A program made the position numbers and the translations under genes. A stretch of DNA of 64,000 bases. Origin: Welwitschia mirabilis (Eukaryota). The notes beneath the pieces were generated by a model that saw only the letters and a program-made list of their open reading frames with translations, had not been told where the DNA came from and ran no database searches. The DNA lies in NCBI GenBank assembly GCA_051453625.1, contig JBOZIK010000001.1, positions 11,034,974-11,098,973 on the forward strand, written 5' to 3'. Below, piece after piece: positions 2,801-61,739 of this stretch (position 1 is its first letter; each line of letters opens with the position of its first letter).

Positions 2801-3189
2801 TAAAAGCTTAGAAATAAGGATCAAATAAAGATCATTAGATAGAAAGTTAGAAATGTTGATAGCTACAATGGTGAGAAAAGGAGAAAAGGCTCATGATTAA
2901 ATAGAAAAGGGCTAGCTTACTAAATAAGTTTCTAGAGATAAGGTGGATCTAATAAAATTTTGGAGTTTAAAAATATTTTTAGGATTTTTAAATACCACCC
3001 TAATTAACTGCATCATTTTTCCATCAACTTGCTTGGTCAACCAGTCAAGAACCTAGTTAACCCAATTATAATGTCCAATTTAAATCTGAGTAACCAAATA
3101 AAAGTTTAATTAATTCCATATAAATGGGATGATCAAGTAAACTTGAATGAAAGTTGGATTAACTATCCTACACTCAGTTAGAGGACAAC

Positions 3190-8212: not shown

Positions 8213-8282
8213 GGCTAGGGTTATTAAGTCAAGTAATGGTTAAAATTTTGGTGTTGACTTAACTTGATCCTCTAATATGAAA

Positions 8283-18400: not shown

Positions 18401-18899
18401 AGATTATGCAAATTGATTTAAAACTTCAAAGTTTTCTCTTAGCTTAAATAGAATTTAATAATTGTACATATTACTGAATTGAAAATATTTAGATGCACAT
18501 TTCATTATAGACTAGAATATTTCCTTCTGAAGAGTTTTCTTTTCTGATACCTAGTTGTAATTAGGTTCTAGTTTTAGTAACTAGTTATGTCTCAGATGAC
18601 TCTCAGGGCATAACTACTCCACTTTTCATTTTCACAACTTGTATTAGCCGTAATTAGGAGAGTATAACCTTATCGTAGGAGTAAGGACCTATAGAATATT
18701 TCTTTTTTTTTAATTAAATATCTAGATCATGGCCAACTAATCCCTTAGTGAAGCTCTCGTAACTATCATATTATACTGGAAAAGAATCCTCAGATCTTGG
18801 ACCAATAGACTTCTCTTCTATGTGGGAAGAATCGTTCTAGTTAAATCAGTACTTCACTCTCCTATACACTTACAGTAGAACATTATGGTATTCCCTTTA

Positions 18900-18936
18900 T
18901 AGATATATATAGATATATATATATATATACACACAC
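18900..18936. repeat. (AT)n/(AC)n microsatellite
   Basis: Direct reading. Confidence 0.9.
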
Positions 18937-19071
18937 CTATATACATACATATTCAGAAAGTATTATGTTATGTTATAGAATGTGTCACCTTAATTTTCTT
19001 AATAAAGATAATGCACAATTTCCTATTGAAGACTTATTAAGTTAATTTCTTGATTTATAATTATTTTATTC

Positions 19072-19171
19072 ACCTTAAAGACTTGATAAATTAATAGATT
19101 TAATAAACTTTAAAGAAATGATTACCTTAAAGACTTGGTAAATTAATAGATTGAATAAACTTTAAAGAAAT
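19072..19171. repeat. Two-copy tandem repeat of ~52 bp
   Basis: accttaaagacttg(a/g)taaattaatagatt(t/g)aataaactttaaagaaat occurs twice. Confidence 0.9.
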
Positions 19172-25100: not shown

Positions 25101-27576
25101 GGTGGTGATCACCTTCTTATACACTTGTGAGTTTTTTTGTTTCCATTATTTCCTCCTAAGAAATATGTATATGGTTAGGGTTGTTATGCTAATTCGCTAC
25201 CTTGACATTCTCTCTTATCTTCATGCCATTTAATGTCCTGTACCTAAAATGTAATAATGAAATGCATAGATACTAACATACTAACTAATTAACCTTTTGA
25301 TTAGTAAGCATAAAAATAAATAAAAACATCTATTTTTTGATGAAATATATAATTTACATAAGAAAAAACACTTTATTAATAAGCAAAATATACATAAAAT
25401 TCATCCTCATTAGTAATCTTTAGCAAGTTTGATGATAACTTCTCTCATCTTTTAGAACTATATGAATGTGGTCTGTATTTCTGAGAAGTATAGAGTACAA
25501 TAAAGAGACCCTTTAAAGAGTACCACTATAATGATTGTCATATTCAATATGGTTTTCTTTATAAAGAGGTAAAATTATGTGTTCCTAAAGGTTCCATAAG
25601 GAATGAAATTTTATAGGAAAAACATAATGGAAATGTGGCAGGAAATTGTTAGGTGGATAAAACTCATGTATTGGTATAGAGGAATTACTTTTAGCCTTAC
25701 TTGTTTAAGGATGTACAAAAATAGATGAAAACCTATGAAATTTGTTATAGTCTCAAAGGAAGATTTCTAATGCAGAATTGTGCATTCCATGACTAGTCCC
25801 TACAAGACCTATAGAAGATGTAGATATTGATTTTATTCTTAGTTTACCTCAAAAAGTAATGATGTCATGTTATTAGTGGTTGATAGGCTTAGTAAAATGG
25901 CACATTTTACTTCATGTAGAAAGACAAATAATGCATCATATCAACAAATTTGTTCTTCTATTAAATTTTAAGGTTACATGCTTTACTTGGCACTACTATT
26001 ACAAATAGATATGTAAAGTTTGTATCACATTTTTAAAAACATTTGGTGAAATTATTATGAACAAATTTGCAATTATCTTTAGCATACCATTCATGAACCA
26101 AAGAGCCAAAGATTAAAGAGGATTAGTAAAATAGGGCATTGAAACTTGCTTTAATGCTTGTATGTGCTTGTGTGATGGAAACCTAAAACTATGAAAGAGT
26201 CATCTCTCTCAGGCTAAGTTTGCATACTGCAACTCCATCAATAAGAGCACAAGGAAAACACTATTTGAAGTCATGTATCAATTCCACCTAAGAATACTAG
26301 ATTTAGTTGAAAAGATAAAAGCTCCATCAATAATGACAAATGAAGTTGCAACCAAAATTGCAACTCTTCATAAATATATGAAAAGGCAACTTGAGAAATA
26401 AACTTTAAATGCCAAGGAAAATTTAATTAGCAACAATAACATGTTGAGTTTGAAGAAGGTGATATTAGGAATGGCATGCATTCAAAAAGATAAATTCTCC
26501 ATAGGAGCTCATAAAAAGCTAAAGCATAAGGGGGGAAGATCATGTAAGATCATCAAAAAGATTTCTTTAAATGCATACCTATTGGAACTTGCCAAAGGCC
26601 TTTCTTAAACTTTTAGAGTTGTAGATTTGATAAAGTATCATAGCAAGATGGAGACTAAGAACAAATTAATAAAGGATTATAAAAGATGAATAAAGGAAAG
26701 AAAAAAGTGTATGAAACACCTATAATTTTGGACCAACCAGAAAAATCTACAAGGAGAAAGTACTACAAAAACTCTTAGTTTAAATACCAAGAAAATAAAA
26801 GGAATATTTAGTTTTAATGTTTGAAAAAGATTATTACAACTAAATATGATGTAGGAAAACAATACTGCTCATGTGGTATTTCACCTTTAAGTGAGACAGG
26901 ATGATTTAAGAGCACTCTTTAGTAGAAATAAATAATTAATTAAAGGCATTAAACACTATATTTATTAGTTATTATAGTCTAGAATTTTAAGGTTTCAAGT
27001 TGAATTTTCCAAGTAGGAAATTTGGAATTAAAGGATAAAGGTATTTTTATGTATATCCAAGTCTATTAGGCTTATTTTCTATGACAAACAATGGAATCTC
27101 AGGCTATAGCCAGCTACCATGTGTCAATATCTTTCTTAGCATAAACATAACAAATCATATGCTAAATTTGGCAAAGTGATGATGAAGTTATGTCCAAATC
27201 ACTAAAGCCATCTTTTTATGTAATTTTTGGGAATTAAATCTTATAATCATTGGGTTTTAAATTAGAATTTTGTAAAAGCCTAAATTATATTTTATAAGTT
27301 TCTAATAACCTCCTCTATAGTTTAAAAGTTGGAAAGAGTATTAAAATTTTTAATATCGTGCTCATAAGATTTTTCATTTGGAGTTGAAAGCTTGTGATAG
27401 AATAGTGTTTTTAAGATGCACATGCTTGAGAAAATATTGTAAGCTTGTATTATATTAAATATTTCTTTTTAACAAAAAAAATATATTCATTAGTTATTTC
27501 CAATATTATCAATGTATTTCTAGTTTTACATTCCCTAAAATAGATCTTAGGACTTTCATTATGTTGTTCTACATCA

Positions 27577-39741: not shown

Positions 39742-40113
39742 TAAGTCCTTAATAAGGAAGGAATAAATTATGCTTTATCAAAGAAAACTTAACAGAAATG
39801 ATATAAAATAAAATTTATCTAGTTATTCTACATCTTAAAGTCTTAAATTATTAGAGTAATTTTATTTAATAAATTTTTTCTAATTAATTAGATAATTTCT
39901 AGCCTTCTAAAAACTTCATAATTAAAAATTGATAATTAATTATTTATAAGGGTAAAAATAAATTACTATAGTTTTTCCTAAACTAGACTCATTATATCTG
40001 AGCTACAAGAGTATTAACAACTTGTAATGAACTTCATAGATAGGTACACAATCCAAGACAACAATTTCTCAAACTCAAGCGCATGCATTTCCATTTTCTG
40101 TTAGTACTTAGAG

Positions 40114-40974
40114 ATGGAAGGAAACTGAATCTTTCTTTCTTCATTGCAGAGAAATCAAAGGAAAAATTTAGAGCTTGTATTCAAACTTGATTAAGGGAAC
40201 TAGACCAAGGTGAAACCTAGCTTCTTAGGATGAGGCATTGGGAGAGGTAGATTTAATCTTCTTAAAGTAGAGTTTTATAGCTTCTAGTGTAAACAGTAGC
40301 ACTTAAGTTAGGCACTGGAGTAAGTTCTAGTGAAAATTTTCTAGAAGCCTTTTGGATGCTTTGCAAGGGCAGAAGTGCTCTCAGGAAGAAAGAGTGTGGT
40401 ACTTTCAAGGCTACGGATAACTCAGGGAAGCTTGTTAGTGAAGAAATTATGAGAGATAGGTAGCTAAAATGGCCAAGAAATTTGGGAAGGGGAATCCAAA
40501 AGTAATTGTTATTAGTAAAGATGAGAAAGACGAGGATGGCCTTAGAGTTGGAAGAAGGGCATGTTAGGGAATAAAGTCCTTATGGGGAGAAAGATTCAGA
40601 GGCCACAGTCTAAAAAAAGAGCTAGGCTAAAGTTCAATGAACAAGATTATTAATCAAATTTTTCTAGAAGTTTAGATGAGAAAAGTCTAAGCAAGAATGG
40701 AGGGAGCAGATGGCTGGATTCAGATTTAAAGCCAGATTTTGATAACACGACCACGGAAAAGGATTATAAGAACCATTATGAGGTCCTAGAAATCAGATCT
40801 GGGATTAAGCAAGAGGATATTATTAGGGCCCATAGGAAATTAGTGTTGTGATAACACCCTTATAAAAATAAGAGTAATCCTCAAGAGGCATGGAAGATGA
40901 CTAAAGACGTAAACGGCACTAAGGATGTCCTGACAAATAAGAAGATCAAAGCAATTTTCCATTTTTGTCACTAA
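40114..40974 (+). pseudogene. Decayed ORF with C-terminal DnaJ J-domain (element J1)
   Basis: 40759-40974 translates KDYKNHYEVLEIRSGIKQEDIIRAHRKLVL**HPYKNKSNPQEAWKMTKDVNGTKDVLTNKKIKAIF. ATG at 40114, charged linker with KKRARLK upstream, T-rich 3' region and A-tail 41509-41529 downstream. Confidence 0.8.
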
Positions 40975-42279
40975 TAGAAGCTCACCCAAAAGTATGGGTG
41001 CTAGTCTTAACCTTTATGAAGGGTGTTGGTTTATGTTTTTATTTTTATAGTTTTTGATCAATTTGCAGTCTTTAGATATTAGTTTTGATTTATGTAAGTA
41101 GCTACTAGTTTTGGGAGTTGTTATAAGTTTTTTGATTCCTTGAGTCTCTAAGTGTAAAATGGAAATAGAAAATATGATTCACAATTTTAAAAGAGAAGCT
41201 CTTATTTTGAAAAAAGTTGAAGTAATTTTCGAAGCTACTCACAAGGTTTTTTTTCCTTTCTCTTTTTTTTTGATTTTTTTTTTCAAGAGGAGGTGGAAGC
41301 AATTTTACTATTTTACTCTTAGTACATCAGGAGGGAGTATTTTGCATGTTTTAGGCCTAGTATTTTGCCCAAGATAGATGCAAGTTTAAGCTAATCATTG
41401 TAATCTCAGGTATTTCCTCCTACTTTATTTGTTGTACGTATGTTTCTCTTGGTGATTTTTGTATACTTCTCATGTTTTTATTTTAATAGAAAATGTCCAC
41501 TTTTATTTAAAAAAGAAAAAATAAAAAAATGGACTCATTGTATAAGTTTTAAACATTAAATCTATCAAATTTGGATAGTTAAGAATACATTTTCTAAGAT
41601 TATATATTAAGAATAAAAATTGTATAAATTTTTAAAATTATTATCATACCACACCAAACTAAAAAGGTTATAACCTTTAGACTACTTTGAATTTTTAAAT
41701 GATTTAAATACTTTGGAAATATTATTTAATTTTCTATTATTAAACTATTAAATCACTATAAATAACTTAGTATTAAATCTATAATCTAAGATTAAATGCT
41801 TACTAATTCATATGTTTATTTTTGTAGTTATATATATTAAATAATTTCTAAAAAATTATTAACTTTTAAAATTTACTATTATTAAATTTTTATAATGTTG
41901 ACTGAATTTTGAGCTTACCAAAAAAATCTCATTAAAATATAAGAAATATTTAATGAGTCATGATCTCCCTAAGTTATGTTATCAATTTCAAAAACATGAT
42001 CTTTATCTAAATAAGAACATATAGACTCATATATANNNNNNNNNNNNNNNNNNNNNNNNNNNNNNNNNNNNNNNNNNNNNNNNNNNNNNNNNNNNNNNNN
42101 NNNNNNNNNNNNNNNNNNNNNNNNNNNNNNNNNNNTAAATAAGAACATATAGACTCATATATAAATCTAAGGAACTATAGTTGATGAAATTTAATGCAAA
42201 TACCTAATATACTAAGTCTATGTAATATACACAATAAATTTTAACTAATAAAAATTTATGTTAATTATAAAATTCAATG

Positions 42280-44165
42280 CACAAGATTAAGTAAAAGTAG
42301 ACAACTTCAATGAGCCTTAAGATTAACATGAAGGACTACCTAGCGTAAGTGGGATTCAAGATTAGATAATTCATCCTAATAAAAGGATTCTAATGCATAT
42401 ATGATGCATAAAGAAACTTCAATAATCAATAAATAATTCACAACAAAACATTGGTATCAAAATGTTATAATAAACCCCTTTGTCAATTGGCTATATTATC
42501 CATTGGTAATTGCATCAACTAAGCATGTAAACAGATCACTTAAATCCCTCCTTTATCTCAGTTTTAGCCAAATGGGAGGAATAATTTTAAACAAACAATA
42601 TAATAAGCTTATGCAATGGCCTAATACAATACCTTTTTCATGACACAAATTTCCTTAGAGAATAAATAACATAGGAATATAGGAAGTAGAGGAAACCTAC
42701 TTAGAAATTCATGATTGAAGGATTCCATTTGATAAAGTTTGATGAATAATTAATGAAGTAGTAACTTGTAAGATCCTTATCTCCAAGCTTCAAGCTCTAA
42801 GTTACAATCTCCAAACTCAAAAATAAGAGTACAAGAAGAGAAGAAAAGAATGTGGAAGAGTGAGAGGAGAATTAATATCACAAAGTCATCTAAAAGTGAA
42901 AAATTAATTTTTAAGAGAGGTAAGGGATATCTTTATGGGTAAATAATAAACCAAAATTCCTCGATTCAATTAGTTAAAAAATACACACATCATTTAATCC
43001 ATGAGATAATATGATTACAATAAAGTGGATGTATTAATCCCATTGAATTGAATAAGATGGGTTACACTAAATTGGATAAGATTGATCAATAATAAGTTAG
43101 TTCAGCTTAACTAATAAGTGACATTAATGTGTGAATGGAAAAAAAATACATCATATTTATGATTCATGCATGTAACTAAGGTGAGTAATTCTCGTACTTT
43201 AATTAGCAAGGTTAATGACAAACATTTTTTCTTCATGATAATGCATTCTTGATACTTCAAAAGCTCATAAGCATATTCAATCAACTCACAAACATGCATT
43301 GAATAGTGTTTAATATGCATTAAATGAATACTCTTTTTTCTATGCACTAATTTTAAAAGTTTTATGTGTCATAATGAGATAAACCTTTCTATTTTAGTGA
43401 ATTAAAAAAATTGGATATTTTATAAACCAAGTACTTTTGTAAGGTTAAGAAGAATAAAAATCATAGTATAGTCAAATCTACTCATTCATCCTTCTTACTT
43501 TATTCATAAGAGTGCATATAGTTATTTATGTGCTCATTAATTTTATGATCCATAAAATCCATTAACACAAAACACAAGAAAGCAAATGTCATAATAGAAT
43601 GTAGTACACTTAAATTTTTATCCACTTCTTTTGTCAAATACATTAACCATTTACTTTTACTAAGTAATTTTACTTTTTTGATTTCGATGAGACGCATGAA
43701 TAAGTATGTAGTAATATAAATATTAAATATGTCATTCTTGTAAATATTTTATTATCATTTTATGCATTATTATAAAATTCTCAATTTAATAATTTTACCA
43801 TCTAAAGGAGATGCCTTTATATAAATATAATTCTTTGATTTTAATGTTTGGATAGCGTGTTTATTTTTTTCATAAAAATTTTTATAAAAAAATTATCCAA
43901 AAATATTAAAACTATGAGAATAACCTAAAAATTAAGATTAATTACTTAAAATATTGTATGACTATCTAGAATTCAAAATTAAGCATAATGCATAGATTTT
44001 AACATAAGAAAAAAATATAAGATATCATTTGTAATAAAAATAAATATTATTTTTTATGAAGATTCTAATTAAAGAAGGGATTTCATATTAAAATTATCAT
44101 ATGATTAAGAGATTAACATGTTTAATGTTTCAGTAATTAAAGGTTACAAAATGTGGGATATAACA
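42280..44165. mobile_element. Possible decayed LTR remnant(s)
   Basis: LTR-like purine-rich block at 42650-42940 and a possible terminus gtgggatataaca at 44165. No partner copy or PBS seen. Confidence 0.25.
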
Positions 44166-44939
44166 TTAAGTTCTAGATGCGGACCAATACTACTCTCTAA
44201 ATATGATTGACAGATAAAGAATTTAGAGTTTTTTAAGGTAATCCTAAGCTATCAAACTCTAATGCCTTCATCTAGAATTACATGCAACCTTGAACTTGAT
44301 ATTTATCTATGGTTATTTTATTATAAAGTTCATTTTTAGAATTTATAACTTTCTTATTTTTGATATGTATAATAACGATCTAATGTTTGTAGCATGTCAT
44401 ATTTTAGATACAAACACAAGGAGAAGACTTAACTTGAGGTTAATTAGCTGATGTATCTTTTTGAGCATTTGTTTGATAAACTTACCTAGTATCTACTCCT
44501 CCTAGATCTCCATAAGTGAGCCTCCTTGCATCTTATCTTAGATAAAACTATTGATTAATAAGTAGAGTAGTAATTAAAATGGTTTAATCTTTATTCTCTT
44601 AGGGTATAATGAAAAATCTTTACTTCTATTTCATTTGGCTTATGTAGGCCTTTTGCACTTTAAAACTATATTGTTATTATTTTTCTTGGAGTATGGTCTG
44701 GTAGCCATTTGATGTTTTCATGATTCTTTGATAGTCGATTATTACTTAATATCTCTGGCATTTTGTACTAAATCTTATATTTTGATGTCTAATAACATTT
44801 TTGGCATCTAGCATTCCCTACTAGCTATGTAGATTTTATCTTTTTCTACCACATCTTAATCACTTACTTAATCATAATTAATTATTAATTATACATTAAT
44901 TATTTACTAATTGTATCCACTAGTTAAGACATTAATTAT

Positions 44940-47900
44940 TGATGAAATATAATTTTGTAAAAATAATTAGTAATTTTTGGATGTTTAACCTTTTTAATAA
45001 GTGTGTTTTTATTGTTATTAGATTAATAATTTAGTTAGTATGAATAGGAATGTAATATAAGGATATATATGAATATATATACAATGAATTATGCACTAAG
45101 ATATTCTTAGGTAAAAGAGGTATCACTTGGCAAGAAGATGTAAATAAGACAATAGAATGGTTAAAAAGATAGGATCACCACTCCCATATAGGTAGTTTTA
45201 ACAAGGAAGAAGAGTAACAACCTTGGTAGGAGATTAGAGAACAAAAATAAAGGAAAAAGAAGAAAGTAAAATAATGGTTCTTTGGCAGGAAGGGAAAACT
45301 AGCAATATTATAGGAAAGTCTTAGTTAAGGATCCAAGAAAAGAGCTCTAGTACATTCTTAGAAATGTGACTAGCATCTACATAGCTCCAGTTTCATCTAA
45401 AAATGAAAGCACTTTTAATTATTATTCTATATAATCATAGTACTAAATTTGGTTGCAATTGAAAGCCTAACTTATGCTATGATAAATTACTACATTACTC
45501 ATAAAAGTGTTTTTTGTTTCTTAGCTACGGTATCTATTGTTAGTAGATATCAAGATATAATAGTGCCTAGAAATAGATGTTGTCCAACATTATTTATAAA
45601 TGATTCTGTATTACTTAACCCCTAATTTGTACTTTATGTATAAAATATGTTGTATTTATGCTTCTAATAAAGTCCATTTTCAACCTAATATGCTTGAGTG
45701 ACTATTCTCAAGAGCTAATCATGGTAGCACAACTTAAACTAAATTGGCTGAAAAATTAACCATCTTAGTTAGTTCTTTAGCAATATTTATTAATTTTACT
45801 AATGACTTAGCTTATTTATAGCACATAACCAACATTTTTAATATCTTTATTATAAAAATTATTGTTATTTATACACTTTTATTTGCATAATAATTACAGT
45901 CATTTTGGTACTAGAAGGAGGACATCCTAAAGTTGACTAGCAAAGATGAAGCACTATACAGTCCAAAAAGATAGCCAAATAAAATGAAGACATGAAAAAG
46001 GGAGGTTTGTTAAAAATCCTAAAAAATATAACTTAATAGATCAAAAGGATATTAAAACTAAAATGGAAATAGTACAAGAATACTTTGATGTAGAAGAAAC
46101 TACTTTAGAACATGTAATAAAAGAATAATTTTTTTTTTTAACATATGAATGAAATGGAATAAGGATTAGCTAACCTACTTAGGATACCTCACAATTAAGG
46201 GAATTCTTCTAAAGGATCTTAATCTCACCTTTCTAGAAAGAAATTTTTATTACGTTATAATTAGAAAAATAACGGAGATGCTAATCCCTTAAATAGTGAT
46301 ATCCATTAGTTAGACGAATTAAGTTCCACTAACCTAAATGTATTGGAGATTTCTAATAAAGTAAGAAACATTAACATAACCTCAATCCCTAAAAATTAAA
46401 AAACCACTTATTCATTTGAGTCTGTTTGATTTCTTTGGTAAGGCTAATTATCTAGACTTGGAATCAAAACATTTGAGACATTTTCCTTTTTTCTTAAAAG
46501 GGGGAGCTTAATTATGGTGTTATAGGACCCATAATTATGCTTTTAACTCTTGGAGAATACTTAAAAATGCTTTTTTAAATAAATTTTGATCCATGAGGAT
46601 AATAGAAGACATAATAAAATAAATTTTTAACATCAAATAGAAAGATAATGAGAGATTTAATGAATTTATGAATAGATATAATATATTGCTTGAAAGATGT
46701 GCTAACAATGGAATTTAACTTAGATAAAGAGTAACAGANNNNNNNNNNNNNNNNNNNNNNNNNNNNNNNNNNNNNNNNNNNNNNNNNNNNNNNNNNNNNN
46801 NNNNNNNNNNNNNNNNNNNNNNNNNNNNNNNNNNNNNNTAGATATAATATATTGCTTGATAGATGTGCTAACCATGGAATTTAACTTAGAGAAAGAGTAA
46901 CAGATTTACTTGAGGGTTAGATTCAAATCTTAAAATAAATAGATTTATTATATAGAGAAAGCATTAAAAGCAAAAATTTTCATAAAATCGAGAAAGCTAT
47001 TACTCAATTTTAGAGCATGAACCAAGAATGTATACAAGAAGACAAAAAGAAAAACATTAATAAGGTGTTAACTTCTAAAGTAGAAGGTAATTTGTATAGT
47101 TATAAACATGTTATTATATTTATAGTTCTAACAATATTAGTCTTATGAAAGACGTTGCTGAGAAAGTAACTAACAATATGTTTGAGAAGTTTGATCAACT
47201 ATCTATTCAAAATTTAAAACAAGAAGAAGGATCATCTATGAACATTGTGAATAAGATAGATATGAAGAAACAAGTTGTTTATGGATATAAGAAGTTGTCT
47301 AATGATTAGACATAAATAAGCTAGATGTAAATGTAGGGAACTAACCTTAAGCTAGAAATAAACCTTATCCTTATCAAATCAGAAAATAGAAGACAAAGGT
47401 AGAAAATCCTTTTCAAAAGTATGTCAACTCTAAGATCTACTAATAGTTTGAGTATTATAAAAATTAGAAGAATAAAAATTATAAAAATAATTAAGAAAAA
47501 CACAAGTCAAATAAGAAAGAAAGGAATATTCCTACACAACCACAACCTAACTATAAAGAATCCACTAGTAAAGCAGTGTCTACTAGGTAAGAAAAACCTA
47601 AAGTAATAAAATGGAAACCAAAGAGAAGGAATAAGACAAATACATCCTCCAAAAAAGAAGAAACCTCAACAAAAAACAAAATAGTTATTTTAGAACAGAC
47701 ATGATTCATGACCTTTTCCATGAAATGTAATTAAATTAAGCATCCAAAGATTGAAAAGGATATGGAATATTTAATAAAGGCTCTTAAACATACTACAATA
47801 GCTTATCCCTATTAAAACTACTAAAATATGTGCTAGTTTATTGTAAGTAAATAAAAATTATGTGTTTCCAAAAAAGGAGTAAAAAGGCAGAAAAAGAAAA

Positions 47901-50900
47901 ACAAATAGAAATCATAAAAAAGAATCAAATCTTCTAGGATTCCACATAAATTCTTTAGAAGAAACAACATGAGAAATATAGTGAACCAGGGATGCCTATG
48001 ATAGACATTAAACTTGATAATAGATTCGAGGTTAAAGCCTTGATTGATTTAGGGATAAGTGTAAATTTAATGGCTTATGAAACCTATGAAGAGTTAGAGA
48101 AATCAGAATTATCATCCTTTCAAGGGATGGTTTACCTGATAAATGGATCAATAATAACTCCTAAGGGAATTCTCAAAGATTTTTCTATTAAACTCTAGGG
48201 ATTTACCTATTTATTAAAATATTTAGTTATGAAAAATCAAGGGGACACACATGCAATAATCTTAGAAAGACCTTGTATGGATACTAATGATTCCACTATT
48301 TACTCTATGGAAGGAGTAATAGAGATAAGTTTAGGAGATTTAAAATAAGAAATTAAGTTAGGTGATGTAGCAATTTTATAGAAAATAGGATTAAACCTCA
48401 AGATGGAACTAATTCCATATTACTCTAATAAGTTTATATAATTTTAAAACAATAAAATGAACAAAAATATAAAGAAGAAGGATTAACATCTTAGGAAATT
48501 AAAAAACCACCTCTTAATGATGGATTGAAATACATTGAGATAGCTCTCAATACACCTTTCATAATTAGTAGTATCTTAACTCACTCTTAAAAAGAAAACT
48601 TAATATATTGTTGGTTAAAAGAAAATGAGTATTTGCATGGCATTATACTGATATTAAAGGAATAATCTTGAAATATGCTAATACAAGATCTACCTTGATA
48701 AATTAATTAAAACTTGCAGACAACTTGAAAGAAGATGTAATTCATACATGTAAGAGGTAATTAAATAAGAAGTAATCAAACTCCTAAATATAGGATCTAT
48801 ATATCCTATATCAAACTTAAAATGGATTAGTCATATTATATTCGTACCAAAAAAAGGAAACAAATGATGAGTCTATATAGATTTTAGAATGTTAAAAATA
48901 GTAACCTTTAAAGACCATTTTCCTTGTATCATTTATGAATTAAGTTTTAGATAGAATCGTAGAACAACACTATTATAGTTTACATGAGGGGTATAGTGGG
49001 TACAATCAGATTCCTATAGCTCTAAAAAACTAGGCAAAAACTATCTTTACAAGCTACTAGAAAATCTATGCCTTTAAACTATTAATTTTTGGTTTATGTA
49101 ATTCTCTAGCTACATCTTAAGGATTAGTAAATAGCACATTTCATGACATGATAGGGAGATTAGTTGAAGTATTCATGGATGATTTATCAACCTTTAAAAA
49201 TAAATTTGAGGATTTATTAAACTAATTAAAAAAGGTCTTAAAAAGATGTTAAAAAAAAGGTCAAGCTGATTTGATCTAAGAATCACTTTACAGTCACAGA
49301 AGGGATTGTCTTTGGGCATAAATTCTCACAAAAGGAAATTAAAATCGATGAAAAAAAGGTAAAAACTATAAAAAACATACTATCCTTAAATAAATTAAAA
49401 CAACTTAGATTTTTTCTTCGACATGTCCAATATTGTAGGAGGTTAATAGCTAATTTTAATAAAATTACTAAACCTTTTAAAAAGCTTCTCCAAAAATATG
49501 TGAAATATAATTGTATTGATGAATGCTAAGAAGCCTATCAAACATTAAAAGAAAATTTTCTCATAACTCTTGTGTTACTATAGCCCAATTTGACAAAGTT
49601 ATTTCATATAATAATAGATGCATCTAACCATGCTTTGGAAGTTATTCCAAGAAAAATAGATGATGTAAAAAAAAACCTTATGCTATTACTTATATTAATA
49701 AAACTTTATTATATATTACTAAAAAGAAATTAGGGGAAATGGTCATGTCATTAGAAAAATCAAGACATTGCATTTTAAGATATAAAGTAAAAGTTCATAT
49801 TGATTATAGTGTAATAATATTTTTGATGAAAAAGAAAGAGGCAAATTTGAGGATTATGAAATGGATATTGATAATGTAAGAATTTGATTTAAAAATTATT
49901 GATAGAAAGGAAACAAAAAGTGTAGTGAAAGATCACTTATCTACATTATAATTTCTTGAAGAGGAGGAACAAATTAATATTAGAAATGAATTCCCTAATC
50001 AATACCTTTTCCAAATCGAAATAAACCCATGGTTTATTAATATTGCTAATTTTATAGTTAGTAAAAGACTACCACCTCTCATGAACTAATATTAAAAAAT
50101 AAAATTATTAAGAGAAGTTAGAGATTACATCTGATATGCAAAAATGTTATTTAAAAAAATGTAAAGACCATATTATAAGAAGATGTATTGAAGAAGAATT
50201 ACAGAATAAAATCCTTAAGAAAGCTCATGAAGGAGAAGCCAAAGAACATTATGGTGTAAAAATAAAAAAGATGAAAATCTTACATATAGGATACTATTGG
50301 TTAATAATATTTAAAGATTCTGTTTTCTATGTTAAAAATTGTGATAAATGTTAAAGGGAAGGAGAATCTACTCAAAATATGAAGATGCAACAATAATGAA
50401 TTTAATCAATTGAACCTTTTTATGTATGAAGAATGTATTTTATTATCCCAATTAATCCTTCTTCACATGAAAAGGGATACATCCTAGTACGTGTCAATTA
50501 TTTCATTAGGTGGGCAAAGGCTTAGGCTCTAGCACATTATTCTTCTAAAACTATCATAATTTCTCAACAACATCATCTATCAATTTGGAGCCTTAAAAAG
50601 TCTTATCTCGGATTGAAATACTCATTTTACAAGTGAAATACCTAAAAACTCCTCTAAAAATATGGGATTCATCATAAGCTATCTACTTTCTATCATCCTT
50701 AAACTAATGACCAAGCTAAAGTAACCAATAGGGAATCAAGTAGAATGTTAACAAAACCTATAAACATAAAGAAAACTAGTTGTGCAAAAAAAGTAAATGA
50801 AGCCTTATGGGCATATAAGATAACTTGGAAATAGAGTATAGGGTTTACATCTTATGAATTAGCTTATAGAAAATAGGCAATAGTGCTGATTGAATTCAAA

Positions 50901-51407
50901 ATTAAAACTTTTAAATTAGTTAAAAGTTAAAATGTAATATAGATAAAGCTCAAGAAGATTGGATAGGAAACATGAATATCCTAAATGAATAGAGAAAGAA
51001 AGCCCTTTTAAAAAAGGAAATTACACAACAAAAAATTAAAATATACCATAATAATAAAATAACAAGAATTTAATTTAGTACTGACCTATAACCCTAACAT
51101 GCTTTTACTCAAAAGAGAAATATGAACAAAATTGGCTTGAACCATATATAGTAACAAAAATGATAGGAAATGGAGCCTTTGAAATACATGGTTTAGATGA
51201 AAAAATACCTTATCAAGTAAATGTAAAAATATTAAGGATTTATAATAATCATAAATCTTTACTAAATTATTGAGAAAATCATTATAGGATGGATAGAATA
51301 TTCGCTCTATCTATAGAAATCATTAAATAATAAATAAAAAATAATGTTAACTCTTTAAGGATTATTTTATTCATGTAACTTTTCAAACTATGTGAGATAA
51401 TTGTGAA
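44940..51407 (+). mobile_element. Athila-like element 2 (5' LTR, gag-pol); 3' part interrupted
   Basis: LTR 44940-45902 (tgatg...gtca). PBS tggtactagaaggagg 45906-45921 (tRNA-Asn type). Protease ALIDLGISVNLM. RT KDHFP, GYSGYNQI and FMDDLS. Integrase AHEGEAKEHYG...CDKC and YHP*TNDQAKVTNRE. Homologous to Athila-like element 1. Confidence 0.9.
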
Positions 51408-52455
51408 TCTTCTTTTTTTAAAAAAGAAACCAAACATTATATTAAAAGAGAATAATTACTAGGAAGTAAAATTGTCCTATACTAGGAGGTATAAGAAATC
51501 CAATCAGTAAAAACCAGCCTGCAGACTTTATGTGAGCACACTAGATACAAAGCAAAATTAGGGGTAAAAACTCCCCAAATTCTAGTTTTAACATAGAATG
51601 GAAAAAACTACTATAAACTAAGGAGAACAAGGACTAATATGCCCTATAGTTTGGGAATATATGGCTATGTTAGTACTAGACCAGAAATTGTTCTAAATCA
51701 TCTATTAAAATTTTAAAGATCTAATTCACTTCTTTAAATTTCTCTACTCCTACCTGATTCTTGTTAGGATGAAGTCTAAAATCCTTCTTTTCATAACTCA
51801 ACTTAATAATATTTAACTAATATTTGTGAAATATTTTTAGGATTAATAAGAAACATCTCTTTAATCTATAAATTATAGCCAATAGGACTTCTTTTCTTGG
51901 ATGGTCCATATCAATGTCTTCTTAAGTCTCTTGATTTTCTTCTTTAAAGGAGGAATTTGAATGCGATTGTAAATCTATTCTCTTACTTTGGTTGGCACTA
52001 TTCTCTTCCTTCTAGAAGGGGTTTCTTGAACTTTCTCTGGATGCTGGTGCTCTTATTCTCACTCTTTTATTAGAGGTTTCTCCTGAACTACCTTTTCTTA
52101 TGTTAGGAAAGAAATCACTTCCTCTATAGAATTATCTTAGGGTAGGGGCAGAGATGCTCCTTTATAAGATTGAGAACTTTCTAAGTTGGCCTTTCTCTTA
52201 CATTGAAGAGCTTGTTATGCTTGAACCTTTTCTTCTTTTTTCCTCTAGAATGCTAAGTTTTATTTAAAGTTCTTCAATGAGGATAAGCGAAAGGAGAGGC
52301 CTCCCTCACCCTTAGGTCCCTTGCAACTCTCCACAGTGCCATGTAAAGACCTAAGTGCCTTGATGAATCTTTTCATTGTGATGCCTAAATGGAGAAGTGG
52401 GGTAAGTTAATTTGATTCTCTATGTCTAGGGCCTTGAGGAAAGCAAATATAGCCC
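51408..52455 (-). pseudogene. A-tailed element J2 with decayed ORF ending in a J-domain, 5' end cut by an LTR insertion
   Basis: Minus-strand ~51855-51680 translates CFLLILKIFHKY*LNIIKLSYEKKDFRLHPNKNQVGVEKFKEVN*IFKILIDD (HPNKN = rc of 51757-51771). Charged/basic linker upstream. T-rich 3' region and short A-tail (T-run 51413-51419). Confidence 0.72.
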
Positions 52456-54932
52456 TATTGTGATGCGTATTTATACAATAATTATGCTCAAGAAGACCCT
52501 GTCATTTAAAAATGAAATAGATATTTTACACAACACAATACACTAATATGTATGGGATGGACTTGAATGTCATAATCCGTCAAAGTCTTAGGCTAGAAGA
52601 AAGAGAATTGACTTCAGCAAGAAACACTTACATATTGTAGTAACAAAAATAAATTGCAATGCAGTAAAGTACAATGTAACATACTTACACAAAGTTAATT
52701 TAGAATGAAAAAGGAATAATAAACCTAAACTAATAATGCTTAACCTTAACAAAAGTTTCCCTCATTACCTATATTACTTAAGAAACTATAGAAGCAAAAT
52801 AAACTATAAGGGATAAGTAACAATAAGCATAGAAATAAAAAATAGTTTTTGTATTAAAGTCGAACCACATCCGTGTTACAAAGTAGCCATACCTCAAGAG
52901 AAAGCATAGCCCAACACCAAGGAAGAAATCTTTCTACAACTACCAAGGATGAATCTCTGGTCTTTCGATCTCTTATCATAAGAATTTCTAATATAAGAAA
53001 AGACAAGATAGGCTTAAGGACGGAATTGATACTTATTAATAACAAACACACCAATAATAAAATTGACAAAAAATAATGGGCACAACCCTAACAGTTATGT
53101 AAAAGACATAAAAACAAATGGTAATAGTTAGGTAAATGTTCATTGAAGCATGATAATATATGTCATCCTGCTTATCATTTGAATAATATAGGGGACGATG
53201 TTACATCATAAACAATTCATGTTATCTAACAAATTGATCACATTTGGCATCTTTATTAGCTTTAATTATTCTATAGTCCAGAAGGATTATTGATAAAAAA
53301 TGCTAGTTTCTTTTCAATAAAATAATCAAAGAAGACCATCATCCCCTTCATTGTCCCGATGATAGGTAGGACGACACTCTGCTGATGTGGACTACTGAGT
53401 CAGCATTTCAAGAATATTCTATAATGTATTATCATGTCCATACTCATTTGGATGATAGCCCTGATGATACTCTTATGTAACTGACTCAAACAAGATTCTC
53501 TTGATTGTTTTGTCCATTTTCGAGTCATTGATAAGAATGCCTAACTGCACCAACCGTCTATCCTCATTTGCTGAATTTCCTTATACATAGGTCCTCCTTT
53601 GACTCTCCTTAGCATCTTCGATGCATCGGACATTCTTGTGATAGGAGATCGAAGGGTAGAATATCCATTTGCATGTGTTGCAGAAAGACGTGCACTTGGT
53701 GGCGGGCTGTGAATCTTCCATTGAGACCCAGCTATTTTGTAACCTAGATGAATGTTACTTTTTAACATAAAATCTTATTTTCTTTTCATGCCTACATTGA
53801 AGATATTCTAATTTCCCTTATAGTCTATGTTACTCTTGATCTGGTGACAATTTCTTGGGTGATATAGATTATCAAGTGTAGCCTTTGTTAAGGCTGGAAG
53901 CAAGTAGTGATATAGTTATTTTCAAATTTACATTTAGAATAATCGCATTTTACATTTTACATTGTATATTTATTTTCTTGCATTATTAGCTATTTTCTAA
54001 TTCCTCTTATTCTATAAAGCAATCTAAGTCTTATCTCATAGACTTCAATGAGATATGATATTTTGGGTCTACTACCATTATATTAGTGTTTTGTATTGTT
54101 GGAGATAATTATTTATTTTATTATTGATAGAATCCTTTGAGCTTAAGCACTCACACAAATACACACTACAACAAATTGGCACCATTGCCAGGAAAGTCTA
54201 TTGAGGAGTATGAGAGTTATCATCATTTGAATGAGTACATCAAATTTCTATTCAGTTATTCATCTATAGTGACATTGTATTTTTATTATAAATCATAGGT
54301 TTTCTATTTGTGGTTTTTATTTTTTTCAGTTTTTTTGATTTTCGATTTTTCTTTTTCTTTTACCATTTTTTTAGTTTCGATTTTAAGTTTTAATTTTTTT
54401 TAGAAAAATAGTGGTCTTTCTTTCTGTCGTCCTCATGACAAATAGGACAACAGTGTGATTTCAATTTCTTAGATTTTCATTTTTTTATAATAAATTAGTT
54501 TCTATCGTCTCCTGTGATGTTCGGATGATCAAGTGAACAACAAATCTATTTTTTGTATTTTTTGCTTTCTATTTTTAGTCTCAGTCCTATTTTCTGTTTT
54601 TGTATATCGGTTTTAGTTCTGTTTTGTTTTTCTTTTATTTCTATGTTTGTCATCCCTTCTGTCATTTCCATGATGAACAAGACGATAGTGTTGTTTTTTA
54701 TTTGTTTTTTTTTTGTTTTCTGTTTGCAAGAAACTATGATGTGATTGGTCCAGAAAAGGGCTTATCAGAGAAAAAAAGGGCTACTGACAGAAGAAAGTAT
54801 TTAAAAAAGTTAGGAACATAAAACTCTAAGTGCATATATTATTTTTCCAAGATCATTTTATTTTTATCATTTTTAAGCACCTACCTTCATCTTGAACTAA
54901 AGATTCTCTTCCTTCCATTCTTCTAGAAAAAA

Positions 54933-57400
54933 ATGAATAGTGATCAAGCCACCCATATAAAAATCCTTAGGAGAAATATAACATTTAGAGAACACCCTAA
55001 GGAAAATAGCAATAAAATAATTGAGGATCTTATTGCTGAAAAAAGGAGAAAAGAATCTAAGAATAATAGTAAGAAAATAGTTGGGGAATTTTTTGCTAAG
55101 AAAAAGAGGAGAATCCAAGGAAAATGATAAAAAAACACTTAGAGAGGTTTTTGCAGAAAAAAAGAGACCAACACAAAAAAATGTTGAGAGTAAGGATAGG
55201 GTCCATTCCTCTTTTCAACCACCTTATTATTCCCCATTTTCTTTGCAAAATCCATATAGAACTAATGAAGAAAATCTTAAGTATTCAACCTCATCCAATC
55301 ACTTTTACCCATCCCATTCATCTTTCATGAACTAATATTAATTAAAAAATGATCCAATAAAAGAATTAAGGAATACAATAAAAAAGTGTTATGAAAAACT
55401 CAATAAACTCACAAAAACTTTGGTTGCTTTTATTGAAATGAAAAATTCTCAAACCTATTCTTCTACATCTTACCTTGAGGAAAATGAAAACAACTTATAA
55501 ATGAATAATTATGATCCTTGCTTCCAAGTTGAGAACAAAATTTTAGATCAAACTTTATCATTCTACTCATTAGGAGATGAGCAAAGGAAAGACAATAATA
55601 ACTTGATTACATCTTTCAACAATGAAGATGAGGATGGCTATTTGGATGATAATGATGAGTATATTTATGAGTAAAACTATGATAAAAATGATTATCACAT
55701 TTCCCCTTCTAATGAAAACAACAACATGTAACAAAATGATAAGAATAGCGAAGAAAAGGAAGAAGATGACATTGAGATTTTAGACCGTATCCCAAGCTTT
55801 CACACATTTTGTAAGGATGAAGGAGTTCCACCAATATATGAGATTTAACTTTTAAAACTGATGGAAATAAGCATTGAAATAGAATTAATGGAAAATGATC
55901 AACTAAACTCAGATGAGAATTATAGTTTAGAATTAATGAATTTATTTAAATAGGAAGAGAAATTAAGCTAAGAAACATTAGAATCTCTTTCATCAAATAA
56001 TAAGAGATTTTCTTTTTATAATCTTTCTAGTGATCTTTTTGGGGAATCCACTATCCTGTAAAAGAATAATGATTCTCAACAAAATAAAAAAGAAAAAAAT
56101 AAAATAATCAATTATGAAGAAGAGGGAGATATAATCAAAGAAGAAACTATTCAAAGAAATAATTCTCCAAATCACATTCTTGTTCTTAAAAATAATAAAC
56201 CACATCATCTTAAGGACTTGAGTTCAAAAATCTCTCAGCCTCCTCCTTTGATAACTTCATGTGCAAAAAGTAATATCTTTTCTTCATTTACAAAGTTAAC
56301 TTTACCATGTACTTCCATTGATTATTCTTTTCCAAAACAAAACTTGGGATATCTTGAGATTATTAATTGGGGAAAATCAATCCTAATCCATGTTTGAAAT
56401 TAAAAGTCAAAGATCTTCTTAGGTACATAAAGCCTATCCTAATCTCTCATCCTAAGAAGTTTTTCACAAATATTTTGATCTCTTTTCACACCTTNNNNNN
56501 NNNNNNNNNNNNNNNNNNNNNNNNNNNNNNNNNNNNNNNNNNNNNNNNNNNNNNNNNNNNNNNNNNNNNNNNNNNNNNNNNNNNNNNNNNNNNNCATCAA
56601 ATAATGGGATCTTTCCTTTTTATCTTTTTGAGGAAACCACCAAGTTAGAAGAGAATAATAATCCTTAACAAAATAAAAATGAAAACTAAGAAATAATAAA
56701 TTATAAAGAAGGGAGAGATACAAGCAACAAAGAAATTATTCAAACAAGTACCTATCCAAATCACATTATTTTCCTTGAAAGTAATGAATTACATCATCTT
56801 GAGGACTTTAGTTCAAAAATCTCCCAACCTCTTCCTTTGATAACTTCATGTGCAAAAAGTAATATCTTTTCCTCATTTTGCAAAGTCAACCTTACCATGT
56901 ACTTCCATTGCTCATTTTTTTTCAAAACAAAATTTGGGATGTCTTGGAATTATTAATTAAGCAAAACCATATCTTCTTGATCCCAATCCATGTGTTGAAT
57001 TAAAAGTCAAAGATCTTCTTAGGTACATAAATCCTATCCTAATCTCTTATCCTAAGAAGATTCTTACAAATACTTAGATATTAAATAAAGCCTTTCATGT
57101 TTAATATCAAGCTCTGAATAGAATTTATGTTTCAAATCCTTTACATCATGAGTTCGATAAGAGATTATTTTTCATAAGTTGTATAAATTTTTGATCCCTC
57201 ACATTAATCCTTATGAAAACAAAATTTTATTTGCTCATTTGAAAAAGCCTTATTTTCCTAAGAATCCATATCTTAAATCAAATAATAGGAAACATTTTAG
57301 ATATCCTTCAAAATTAGATTGAAAACTTTCTTTGAGTCCCTTTTCACATGCCTTTCACAATGATGCCCAAGATACTGAAAATTCTCATAAGAGATCATTT
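54933..57400 (+). pseudogene. Decayed low-complexity ORF of the non-autonomous element
   Basis: Starts MNSDQATH. Basic repeats, a Pro/Ser/Tyr segment, an acidic D/E/N tract (55600-55780) and a duplicated block. No catalytic motif recognised. Confidence 0.5.
56025..57080. repeat. Diverged tandem duplication of ~460 bp around an N gap
   Basis: 56025-56480 aligns with ~56615-57080 with substitutions and indels. Confidence 0.8.
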
Positions 57401-60400
57401 TTCAATGACACTTCATTCGTTTATCTCTTATCTGAAGAATGAAAATTATGCTATCAAGGATTATCTTTTTATTCTTTTTTCCTCCAATTGATTTCACTAA
57501 AAAATGAGTGCATACATTTTATGTTTTATCAATTAGTGAATATTTGATTTGGATCTTATTTTTCTAAAAATCTTGAAACCATGTTTCTTTTACTTTCTTA
57601 CTTTCTTTTTCAATAAAAGTATGAGTTAGATTTTAGAAATTGAATTAAATTTATTGGCCTTGATGTTTTTTGATTTTCATGGTAATTTTGATTTTCAATT
57701 TCTATTTTCTCTGTTTTCATCTTCTATTTTTGAATTCCATTTTAGTTTTTAGTTTCTATATTTTTTTCTTCCTATTAATAATATGTCATCTCCTTCATCG
57801 TTCCCATGACAAAGTGAGTGAGTCAGTTTTGATAGTTTTCTAGTTTTTCTATTAATTTTCTATGTTTTGTTTCTTTTTCCTGTGTCTGTCATCCTATATG
57901 TCGTCTAAATGACGAGTAGGATGACAATCAATAAAATGTTGATTTTTGTTTTTTATTTATTTTTGTTATTTTGAGAAAATGTATTTTTATGGCTCTGTTG
58001 AGATTTTTAACTTGACTGCATAAGAATTTCAGATAATGGGCAAGATCTGAAATTACATGAGCAAGCTAACTGAATTTTCTCTTAGCTTTTTCCTTTGAAG
58101 TTAATTATGATATTACTTGATTATTTTTTAAACTTGACTTATGTATTTATCTCTATAACTAGACTTTTGACTTGGGCATTTCAGTGGTAAGATTAGATTC
58201 ACCCAATCTTAGGACATTCCCATGTCCATGAACTTTAATTCAAAGCAGATGCTTTATATTTTACTTTATGGTGAAAAGGTCTTTGATTATTTAAGAGTGT
58301 TCTTTTTTGTATTTATTTTACGAATTTCACCTTTGTCTTTTGAGATGTTGGATTATGTGGAATGTGTTTTTCTTTTCAAAAAAATTAAAAAAGTGAGAAA
58401 TAAATACCATGATGTTTTTAATTATTCTATCTCAAAAACATGATCACCATGATGTCCTACCATAAGTACACTGGGACAAATATTTCCGAGAGGAGCCTTT
58501 GGCAATGTATTATGGTAGCTGTGAAAACTCCACTAGGAGGTCAGTTGATCATGCTTCATGGATCCTTACTTCTCTAACTATGGTTTTACTCCGCTCATCA
58601 TGGATAATAAAGTTATTCTAATAACTTTGAAGCTATGAAACTAGTGGTATTCCTAGTGTCATCAGAGATATTTCTTATTTCTTAGACTCTTAGTCTTTCC
58701 ACATGGTTATTTCATTTCTTTAGATTTGGGTGTTTATTTTGAGATGATGGTAGGTAAGTTTATTTTTGAGTAATTTTTTGGTCTGATCATCCATTTTTAT
58801 CTTTAGCATTATCATAACCACTGCCTTACCAAATGGAGTTTCCATACATTAAGTCGTGCATTTTCACATCAAGTAATATTATAATTTATTTTTTTGAACT
58901 CTGCTAAGTTAAAATATTAGATTAGTGAACTATTTTTTATTTATGTTATCTTATGCCCATCCTTCTTGTTTTCATTTATGATTTGGTTAGTTATTTCAAA
59001 GTCATTACCATATTTTATTATCATGTCTATCCTTTTTTAGTTTTTAGTATTCAATAAAAAGTTGTTTTCTTGAGTTTTCTTACTAAATTTGTGCTTATTT
59101 CTTTTTAGATTTTTTTTGTTGTAATTTCTTCCCATGTTCTTTATATGACAAAACATTTTTTGTCTATAATTTTTCTTTACTTGTCAAAATATTTCATATC
59201 TCTATATTTTTTTTTTTCAAATTTGACATTACGTAGCTTTATACTTTGTTTTGAAAATTGTCCTTATTCTTACTATCTTTTACCTGCCTTCTCACTTTTG
59301 TTTGCCTTCTTTGTTTTATTTGGTAATATGGGACATATCGCCTTTTTTTGGGGGGGAAGAGATCCATTTTCATGGCTCATTTTTCAAAAAATTTTAACTT
59401 ATTTTAAAGCTTTCATGACATAAAATTTTTAAAATTTTTATACATTATGCATTACTTATAATTTATCTATGTAATGTATTTTATGAGCCTATTTTATATC
59501 TTCTAGATTTATCTTTGAAAAATAAATTGGCTCACAACTATGATATTTTTGCCTAGTTTTTGTTAGGGACTGACAAAGGCTAAGTGAGGGGTTATCCTGC
59601 ACTACTAATCTAAGGTCATTTGATGGGGTTTTATGAGTTGTTTTGCAAGCTTTTATACAAGTTTAGGTGCAATTCTGAGGATTTTGGAGATACAAGAAGA
59701 AATCTCAGAAAAGTGCAATTCTTATCTAAATTTGATGCATTAAAGGTACTTTCCAATTCACATAGCTTTAAAAAAGGATTATTGATAAAAATATTGATTT
59801 CTTCTCAAGAAAATAATCAAAGAAGACCGTCTTCCCCTTCGTCGTCCCCACAATAAGCAGGATGATACTCTACTAATGTAGACTACTAAGTTAGCATTTC
59901 AATAATATTCTATAATGTACTATCGTATCCATAGTTGTTCAGACGATAGCCCGGATGACACTTTCATGTAATCGGCTCAAACAAGATTCCCTAAACCATT
60001 TCGTCCATTTCTAAGTCATTGATAAGCATGCCTAACTGCACCAACCGTCTGTCCTCATCTACTGTATTTCCTTATAAATAAGTTCCCCTTTAACTCTTCT
60101 TAGCATCTTTGATGCATCAGACATTCTCATAAGAGGATATCGAAGGGCAGGAGATCCATCTACGTGTGTTGCAGAAAGACATGCATTTGGTGGAGGGCTA
60201 TGAATCTTCCATTGAGACCCAGTTGTTTTGTAATCCAGATGAATATTACTTTTTAATATAAAATCTTGTTTTCTTTTCATGCCTGCGTTGTAGATCTTCT
60301 AATTTTTCTTATAGTCTATGTTGCCCTTGATCTGATAACAATTTCTTAGGTGATATAGATTATCAAGAACAGCCTTCGTTTAGGCTAGAATAAGTAGTGA

Positions 60401-61739
60401 TTAGAGTTATTTTTTCATTTGCATTTATAATAATCACATTTTACATTTTGCATTGTATATTTTTTCCTTGCATTATTAGTTATTTTTTAGTTCCTCTTAT
60501 TTTGTAAAGAAATCTAAGTCTCATCTGTTAGATTTCAATGACATTTTGGGTCTACTTACATTATATTAGTGTGTTATATTATGTGAAATAATTATTTATT
60601 TTATTATTGACAGAATCCTTTGAGCTTAAGAACTCACACAAATACACACCACAACAATAACTAATCATTAAATGCATTAGCCTTAATATTTATCGAAAGT
60701 TTGCCTCAAAATAAAAAGTATTATAAATTGCTCTAAATGCTGCAAAATGTTATGGAGATTGTATGTTTTTGTATCTTTCATCTCAGCTCTTCACTATTAT
60801 AGAAATCTAGCATAATCCTATCTAATATCCTACAAAACTATTCAAAATACCCTATTAAATATATGTAAGTTGGTAGCACAACATAGCTCCTCACTCAGCC
60901 TTGTTGGTCCCTAATAAAACTAGGTAGTAAACCGTGATTACGAGCTAACTTGTTTAATAATAAAAATGGCTAAGGTACTAAATAAATTATCTCAGAAAAA
61001 TTTTCAGGAATATCAAATATTACAAAGTGAATCATGAAAAATTAGAAAATAGAATGTTTTACCTGATTTGAAAACCACCCATGCCATCTTCTGGGTCATC
61101 GTCTAGAGGATTAAAGGGATGATAGGCTCAAAAGATGATCTTAGAAAATAGAAACCTGTGACAGAATTTTTCAGATAAATAATCAGGTAGTGAAAAAAGC
61201 CCCTCACTAAAATATACAATAATGACTAAAAAAATCACCTAAATAAAATTAATTCTCATTATAACGTATGAAAAAGAAAGATAACCATGAAAATTAAATT
61301 AAAATAAATACACCATGCTGAACTAAAAAATGATGTGTATGTATATAACAATGAGTTTCAATAGAAAACTATATAAAAGAGGAGATATAAAGTATAAAAA
61401 AATCAATCTCCTCGTCATCGTATAATGAATTCTATCTAGGCAACTGGCTTAGGTGCAAGAAAAGAAAAGGAAGGACACATAGGGTTAATAGGGAAATGGA
61501 GGTTCAAATATGTGTAAATGGAATAGATTATCTCATTGCTCTAAACATGAATCGCCTTTGGAATATCTATAGTAACACTCTACTTAATGAAGACAACACA
61601 TTGGTGCATGTTAACAATCTGGTCCTCAGAGTATTGTATTCTCCTCTTAACTATTAGGATTCTCTACTCCAATATCTAATCCCTCTAATTTAGAGCCTGT
61701 ATCCTATAGTCTAATGTTTGGATTCCATGATTTACGAAA

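Follow-up and report, generated by a model that had tools for sequence, protein, structure and literature searches.

Retrocopies of cellular mRNAs made by L1-like enzymes have been described in the dicots Arabidopsis and cassava, where they carry A tails of 10–22 nt and are flanked by duplications of 13–17 bp (PMC4838847). In plants, capture mediated by long terminal repeats (LTRs) is thought to dominate over such retroposition of mRNA by long interspersed nuclear elements (LINEs) (PMC4838847). The Ty3/gypsy elements Retand, Grande, and RIRE2 contain extra open reading frames (ORFs) that run antisense and lie between pol and the 3′ LTR (PMC11963269, PMC7264820), and these mostly encode Transposase_28 (97% of Retand clusters; PMC11963269). 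No published case of a J-domain carried by a retroelement family was found among the top-ranked literature matches. Here, we analyzed two decayed J-domain sequences, J1 and J2, located on opposite strands of a 64,000-nucleotide stretch of Welwitschia mirabilis DNA from contig JBOZIK010000001.1 (hereafter, the window). The reading that we favour, and consider probable, is that J1 is an ordinary processed pseudogene and that J2, another J-domain relic, is older, has decayed further, and arose separately. The coordinates of all features are given in Table 1.

J1 is a discrete retroposed insertion. DNA contigs of organism A (run X1) and of the related organism B (run X4) were placed on positions 39800–52700 at 80% likeness. 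Contigs of the repeat that hosts J1 left the window at 39997 (95 contigs in X1 and 94 in X4), and the consensus of their continuation matched the window again from 41544. A joint from 39997 to 41584, skipping 39998–41583, was present in five contigs of X1 and six of X4, and the 40 letters lying between the two sides of the joint in X4 correspond to the distance 41544–41583. Therefore, other copies of the host repeat lack 39998–41543, and these paralogous empty sites prove the boundaries of J1. The start of J1 had been placed at 40030 in the initial annotation; the true ends are 39998 and 41529. The GC content of the insertion is 0.34, compared to 0.215 and 0.209 in its flanks. The flanks lie in a very abundant repeat with summed depths of 3665 and 2154–8496; flank depths of 2154–3665 compare with 23–46 in the two inner bins of J1 (X1 and X4). 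The third bin (41093–41523), which holds a skipped repeat, had depths of 248 (X1) and 43 (X4). The host repeat itself (41544–45000) matched zero Pfam families in six frames.

The two copies of the target-site duplication (TSD), TAGACTCATTATAT and TGGACTCATTGTAT, differ by A/G at both mismatched positions, and a match of this quality at a fixed place has P ~3e-5. When the best ungapped match was sought, A-rich words dominated the result (98 of 300 shuffles scored as high), and the duplication was then set from the empty-site boundaries. The tail, the TSD, and the empty sites are hallmarks of target-primed reverse transcription of a polyadenylated RNA by a LINE enzyme, and from the observed boundaries, duplication, tail, and empty sites we infer that such an enzyme acted at J1. 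J1 resembles the L1-like plant retrocopies: the insertion is discrete, its A-rich tail measures 21 nt, its TSD measures 14 bp (two mismatches), and there is an empty site (PMC4838847), the latter being represented by paralogous copies of the repeat, not by an allele or an orthologue. Unlike those retrocopies, J1 is not inserted at TTAAAA, and its parent was not found among database proteins. The LINE-type mobilization initially proposed for both sequences thus stands for J1 (A tail, 14-bp TSD, empty paralogous sites); at J2, no significant duplication was found.

According to the favoured reading, a LINE (L1-like) enzyme would have used a nicked target to reverse-transcribe a polyadenylated mRNA from a host gene that encoded a small J-domain protein. 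The resulting copy would have landed in one member of a high-copy, non-coding repeat family, leaving a 14-bp TSD and an A tail, and would then have decayed through stops, frameshifts, and the change of HPD to HPY. J1 would be without function. J2 probably arose as a further retrocopy or as a piece of a gene, and would now be boxed in by a minus-strand LTR and the 3′ end of a plus-strand Ty3/gypsy element.

The contigs of the J1 locus itself bridged both junctions at single-copy depth (6.8 and 4.3), and at site 41411 X1 had a single contig with a total depth of 4.3, while X4 had two contigs with a total depth of 10. Hence, given its single-copy depth in both organisms, J1 does not form an abundant family. 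The insertion is present at the identical site in organism B (contigs 39968–40840 with 15 differences and 40819–41654 with 10 differences and two gaps), and so it arose before organisms A and B separated. The fraction of sampled words that were present was 0.95 in organism A and 0.46–0.57 in organism B. A single-letter discrepancy was noted at 41411, where the window has T and the sole organism A contig and both organism B contigs have G; the T probably reflects either a mistake in the assembly or variation in the individual that was sequenced.

The initial annotation had interpreted J1 and J2 as members of an abundant LINE-mobilised family that carried its own Hsp70 co-chaperone. This interpretation is not supported, given the copy number of J1 and the lack of detectable kinship between J1 and J2 outside the J-domain; in addition, RNA reads point to an expressed relative of J1, and J2 ends in repeats that possibly belong to neighbouring LTR elements. 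The opposite case, few copies that are ordinary processed pseudogenes, was found for J1 as to copy number only.

The HPD motif is required for the work of J-domain proteins as Hsp70 co-chaperones. Translations of J1 and J2 read through stops (with X at the stops for J1) were scanned with the Pfam profile PF00226, and its curated cut-off of 27.8 bits was passed by J1 only; J2 scored just below it. The match covered positions 1–61 of the 63 profile positions in J1 and positions 5–56 in J2. In J1, two in-frame stops (40849–40854) occupy the place of two consensus residues before HPD, that is, just before HPYKN; HPD is replaced by HPY, and the frame ends at 40972, directly after helix IV. The J2 domain has HPNKN (HPN for HPD), two stops, and at least one frameshift, and its helix I was located by eye in another frame, upstream to ~51877. 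A separate profile, built from the 150 best database matches of J1 and run on the six-frame translation of the window, found J1 with 58.3 bits and J2 with 10.4 bits; the next match scored −3.9 bits, and no third J-domain was detected in the window with this profile. Besides DnaJ, no Pfam families were found in the sense frames of J1 or J2 (E ≤ 1), except for one noise match. As judged from these profile matches, both J-domains are real, in agreement with the initial annotation, which had reported them with decayed HPD motifs in J1 (plus strand) and J2 (minus strand). With HPD lost and stops in each, neither J1 nor J2 can serve as an Hsp70 co-chaperone. Type III (J-domain-only) J-proteins are comparable in the span of the profile matched, whereas J1 and J2 differ from them in their stops and in the HPY and HPN motifs, and no close relative was found for J1 (the best match having 45% identity across the J-domain).

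RNA reads of organism B provided a lead to the origin of J1. In two RNA runs, 33 reads (X14) and 15 reads (X17) matched 40637–40678 with four fixed differences. Past 40678, the reads diverge from the window at the 80% threshold, and by eye they align in frame from 40697, which is an ATG, with indels of six and three letters being needed. Four reads of the oligo-dT run resembled 40056–40085. All three frames of the matched core contain stops in the RNA reads too, and so 40637–40678 would be an untranslated leader. These data, obtained from 30-letter consensus strings compared by eye, suggest an expressed relative of J1 with a frame start near 40697, as expected of the presumed host parent gene. 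The N-terminal region and the charged linker that the initial annotation had described in J1 would then be mostly leader. None of the listed RNA runs carried J1 itself, and the RNA runs matched J1 and J2 only partially.

Apart from the generic J-domain and a suggestive resemblance in their last 60 nt, no sequence relationship between J1 and J2 is detectable. Comparison of J1 with J2 revealed no match by blastn (E ≤ 1e-3) or tblastx (E ≤ 1). A local DNA alignment scored 17, against 15.1 ± 1.6 for shuffles (reached by 20 of 100), and a composition-aware local alignment scored 21.2, against 18.5 ± 1.9 (reached by 6 of 100), with 22.4 for the reverse-complement control. Permissive blastn of pieces of J1 and J2 against the window returned low-complexity noise only. 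The two J-domains share 12 of 46 aligned residues (26%) and 64 of 150 nucleotides (43%). In a set of 150 unrelated J-domains, 149 surpass J2 in closeness to J1, and 141 surpass J1 in closeness to J2, although this set consists of the best matches of J1, a choice that favours them. The weak N-terminal match reported initially (ENFLEAFWML and KRFIKALRSL) amounts to 3 of 10 identities by eye and was not recovered by any search. Therefore, of the proposed common layout, only the J-domain, the T-rich stretch, and the A run are retained, and blastn, tblastx, and alignments compared to shuffles revealed nothing else that is shared.

The 3′ ends are the place where the two sequences are most alike. 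As the initial annotation had noted, a T-rich region with TTTTAATA precedes an A-rich run in both; the motif lies exactly 28 nt before the run (19 of 21 A in J1; 12 nt, AAAAAAAGAAGA, in J2), and of the 228 A-run sites that the window contains, only these two show this arrangement. In register, the last 60 nt before the A runs agree at 35 positions. Among the 227 other A-run sites, only the partner reaches this value, the best unrelated site giving 33; composition-matched shuffles of the 60-nt end give 22.8 ± 3.1, with 1 of 5,000 reaching 35, and the best of 48 slid registers gives 28. Beyond the last 60 nt, the register holds nothing. Plant poly(A) signals comprise an A-rich element 10–35 nt upstream of the site and U-rich sequence around it, and such signals explain part of the likeness. 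We read the agreement as support for both ends being mRNA 3′ ends.

This likeness bears on two explanations in which J1 and J2 have a common origin. One host gene, or a group of close paralogues, could have given rise to both by two retrocopying events at different times, the shared 3′ end being the poly(A) region of the parent. Such an origin fits the in-register agreement of the last 60 nt, the identical order of parts, and the presence of two such copies close together. However, the DNA identity of the J-domains is only 64/150, below that of the 3′ ends, nothing else aligns, the distance from stop to tail is ~535 nt in J1 versus ~245 nt in J2, and J2 lacks a significant duplication; we regard this explanation as unlikely.

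J1 and J2 could also be diverged members of an A-tailed, LINE-dependent, non-autonomous family with a J-domain gene and a conserved 3′ end. Such a family would be consistent with the C-terminal position of the J-domain in both, followed by TTTTAATA at the same rare spacing before the A run, with the 35/60 agreement, with the true marks of retroposition in J1, and with depth being greater over the 3′ part of J2 (358) than over the 5′ part (157), a pattern that truncation at the 5′ end would produce. An A tail and a duplication link J1 to short interspersed nuclear elements (SINEs) and other LINE-dependent non-autonomous elements as well. On the contrary, J1 occurs at single-copy depth, forming no multi-copy family, and no likeness to J2 was found outside the J-domain and the last 60 nt. 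The J-domains (26% at the protein and 43% at the DNA level) are less alike than the 3′ ends, which misfits neutral decay from one master, and the 3′ likeness is partly due to plant poly(A) signals, with one unrelated site reaching 33/60. Unlike in SINEs, no tRNA-like head was found, and a partner LINE whose 3′ end could be compared is lacking; the portions of the window that were scanned yielded no LINE domain. We consider this explanation very improbable.

J2 is less clearly delimited than J1. The ends initially proposed for it, 51408 and 52455, are uncertain, and both are in repeated DNA, since 26 and 52 contigs of X1 cover positions 51526 and 51539, a range similar to that of the pol sites listed with them (15–49), and five contigs cover 52284. 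A 7-nt repeat was seen by eye at the ends, and the best-scoring repeat was reached by 20 of 300 shuffles. The contig of the J2 locus itself covers 51549–52254 only, at a depth of 5.95 and with no difference from the window. The supposed N-terminal part of J2 and its 3′ region with the tail may belong to the neighbouring LTR elements; alternatively, J2 itself may be partly multi-copy.

The position of J2 suggests a comparison with the antisense extra ORFs of plant Ty3/gypsy elements, since it is located on the opposite strand from a gypsy pol, a short way past its end. J2 could be cargo of an LTR retrotransposon, either a piece of a J-domain gene placed antisense between pol and the 3′ LTR of the plus-strand gypsy family or one captured just inside the minus-strand LTR, and would then have been copied together with that element. 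The last detectable gypsy homology (51366) is 41 bp after the A run of J2, the minus-strand LTR ends 2 bp before J2, the contig counts at 51526 and 51539 are in the range of the pol sites, and antisense ORFs at this place are common in plant Ty3/gypsy elements (PMC11963269, PMC7264820). Nevertheless, the known ORFs mostly encode Transposase_28, whereas J2 is a DnaJ remnant, and the related gypsy copy in the window (14142–25410) has neither domain: its 4.1-kb region between pol and the LTR (15033–19153) contains no J-domain, and the antisense frames there matched no Pfam family. The words "DnaJ" and "J-domain" occur zero times in the main text of PMC11963269 and PMC7264820. J2 is unlike the internal region of the neighbouring LTR element, and, as a weak point, no variant was recorded within 51549–52254 in the 40 best-supported of the variant rows, 2,346 further rows being present. 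We consider a cargo origin decidedly unlikely. The idea that the interior of an LTR element begins with J2 was also rejected, as J2 has no likeness to the inside of its neighbour and no convincing primer-binding site was seen by eye.

Several observations weigh against the favoured reading, under which we infer that J2 is independent of J1. The 35/60 agreement hints weakly that the 3′ ends had a common origin, and if the two J-domain relics are independent, their occurrence within 12 kb of each other is an improbable coincidence. The J2 bins have summed depths of 157–358, with dozens of contigs over the 3′ part, so that J2 may be partly multi-copy. The target site of J1 is not the canonical TT/AAAA, and its assignment to processed copies rests on the tail, the TSD, and the empty sites, not on intron loss, the defining mark of this class. 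Finally, no parent was found in the databases searched. A HMMER search of 1.84 billion representatives with J1 yielded 156 proteins at E ≤ 1e-3, none of them at E ≤ 1e-10 and none a parent, and the word-index protein searches with the read-through translations of J1 and J2 gave zero matches. The proteins found with J1 matched only the generic J-domain, with 45% identity at best. Among the best 150 of the 156 matches, all best stretches start at query residue 71 or later; the J-domain occupies residues 101–162, and the matches therefore centre on it. No parent gene was traced for J2 either, and metagenome scans with one J2 word and one word from its 3′ region gave zero matches each.

The multi-copy signal over the 3′ part of J2, the fall in depth toward its 5′ part, and the 35/60 agreement are also compatible with a set of low- to middle-copy polyadenylated retro-copies, including J2 and, more distantly, J1, which would share a 3′ module (TTTTAATA at −28) and a J-domain frame. 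We consider the existence of such a set very improbable. A LINE-dependent element or Ty3/gypsy cargo that once brought its own Hsp70 co-chaperone, which such a set would imply, is given an equally small chance.

The window is AT-rich (GC 0.22–0.34 per 2 kb), contains seven N runs, and has 43 stop-free frames of at least 75 codons, the longest being 111 codons; it consists of decayed plant-type LTR retrotransposons. The gag-pol remnant abutting J2 has 66–75% identity to the pol of the related gypsy copy (19154–23946, minus strand) and matches Retrotrans_gag, Integrase_H2C2, RT_RNaseH, and Asp_protease_2. The related copy holds gag, RT, RNase H, and integrase domains (Pfam). Its 4.1-kb stretch from pol to the LTR has a length typical of the Retand/Tat lineage (2.9–6.6 kb; PMC11963269), and neither Transposase_28 nor any other recognizable domain was detected in it.

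The LTR next to J2 aligns end to end with the LTR pair of the element located beyond it, with 61% identity over 823 columns (E 2.5e-36). The sequence TGGCACCATTGCCAGG was found directly after the 5′ LTR of that element; we take it to resemble, with three CpG-to-CpA changes, the primer-binding site of tRNA-Asp type that Athila/Tat elements have. Zero Pfam families were found in the plus-strand frames of its 5.6-kb inside (54175–59773), and therefore the element is non-autonomous or very decayed. No clean 5-bp duplication was found around it by eye. A direct repeat of ~460 bp with 82% identity (56021–56479 and 56609–57079) flanks a 100-N gap (56495–56594) within this element and may represent a tandem array or an assembly artefact at the gap. 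Dispersed direct repeats with 70%–74% identity (9252–9882 and 26918–27575; 1137–1287 and 8867–9018) are probably further LTR or element fragments. The most repeated DNA within 39800–52700 was 42386–44109, with a summed depth of 3660–8496 (X1). RNA reads of organism B matched 42500–42571 only in part, and the repeat family of this region is transcribed or contained within transcripts.

Table 1. Coordinates of J1, J2, and neighbouring elements in the window
Feature	Position	Strand	Description
J1	39998–41529	+	1,532 bp; retroposed copy of a polyadenylated mRNA (processed pseudogene), defined by junction contigs, GC content, tail, and TSD
5′ copy of the J1 TSD	39984–39997	+	TAGACTCATTATAT; 12 of 14 positions equal to 41530–41543
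J1 J-domain	40771–40956	+	PF00226, E 3.7e-11, 43.4 bits
A-rich tail of J1	41509–41529	+	19 of 21 A; directly before the 3′ copy of the TSD
3′ copy of the J1 TSD	41530–41543	+	TGGACTCATTGTAT; host repeat resumes at 41544
J2 as first delimited	51408–52455	−	Decayed J-domain relic with uncertain ends
J2 J-domain remnant	51697–51843	−	PF00226, E 7.9e-6, 26.3 bits
Decayed Ty3/gypsy gag-pol	46476–51366	+	3′ end abuts the A run of J2
Diverged LTR	52458–53244	−	Directly upstream of J2 on the strand of J2; kin to LTRs 53282–54174 and 59774–60657
LTR element	53282–60657		LTRs of 0.89 kb, 84% identical (53282–54174, 59774–60657)
Full-length decayed Ty3/gypsy element	14142–25410	−	LTRs 14142–15032 and 24500–25410, 82% identical; pol 19154–23946

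A J-domain borne by a retroelement family would, if true, be a new accessory domain for plant retroelements. The present finding is ordinary and reveals neither a new kind of mobile element nor a transposon-borne chaperone. In J1, a plant-type genome offers a neat case of a host mRNA retroposed by the LINE route.

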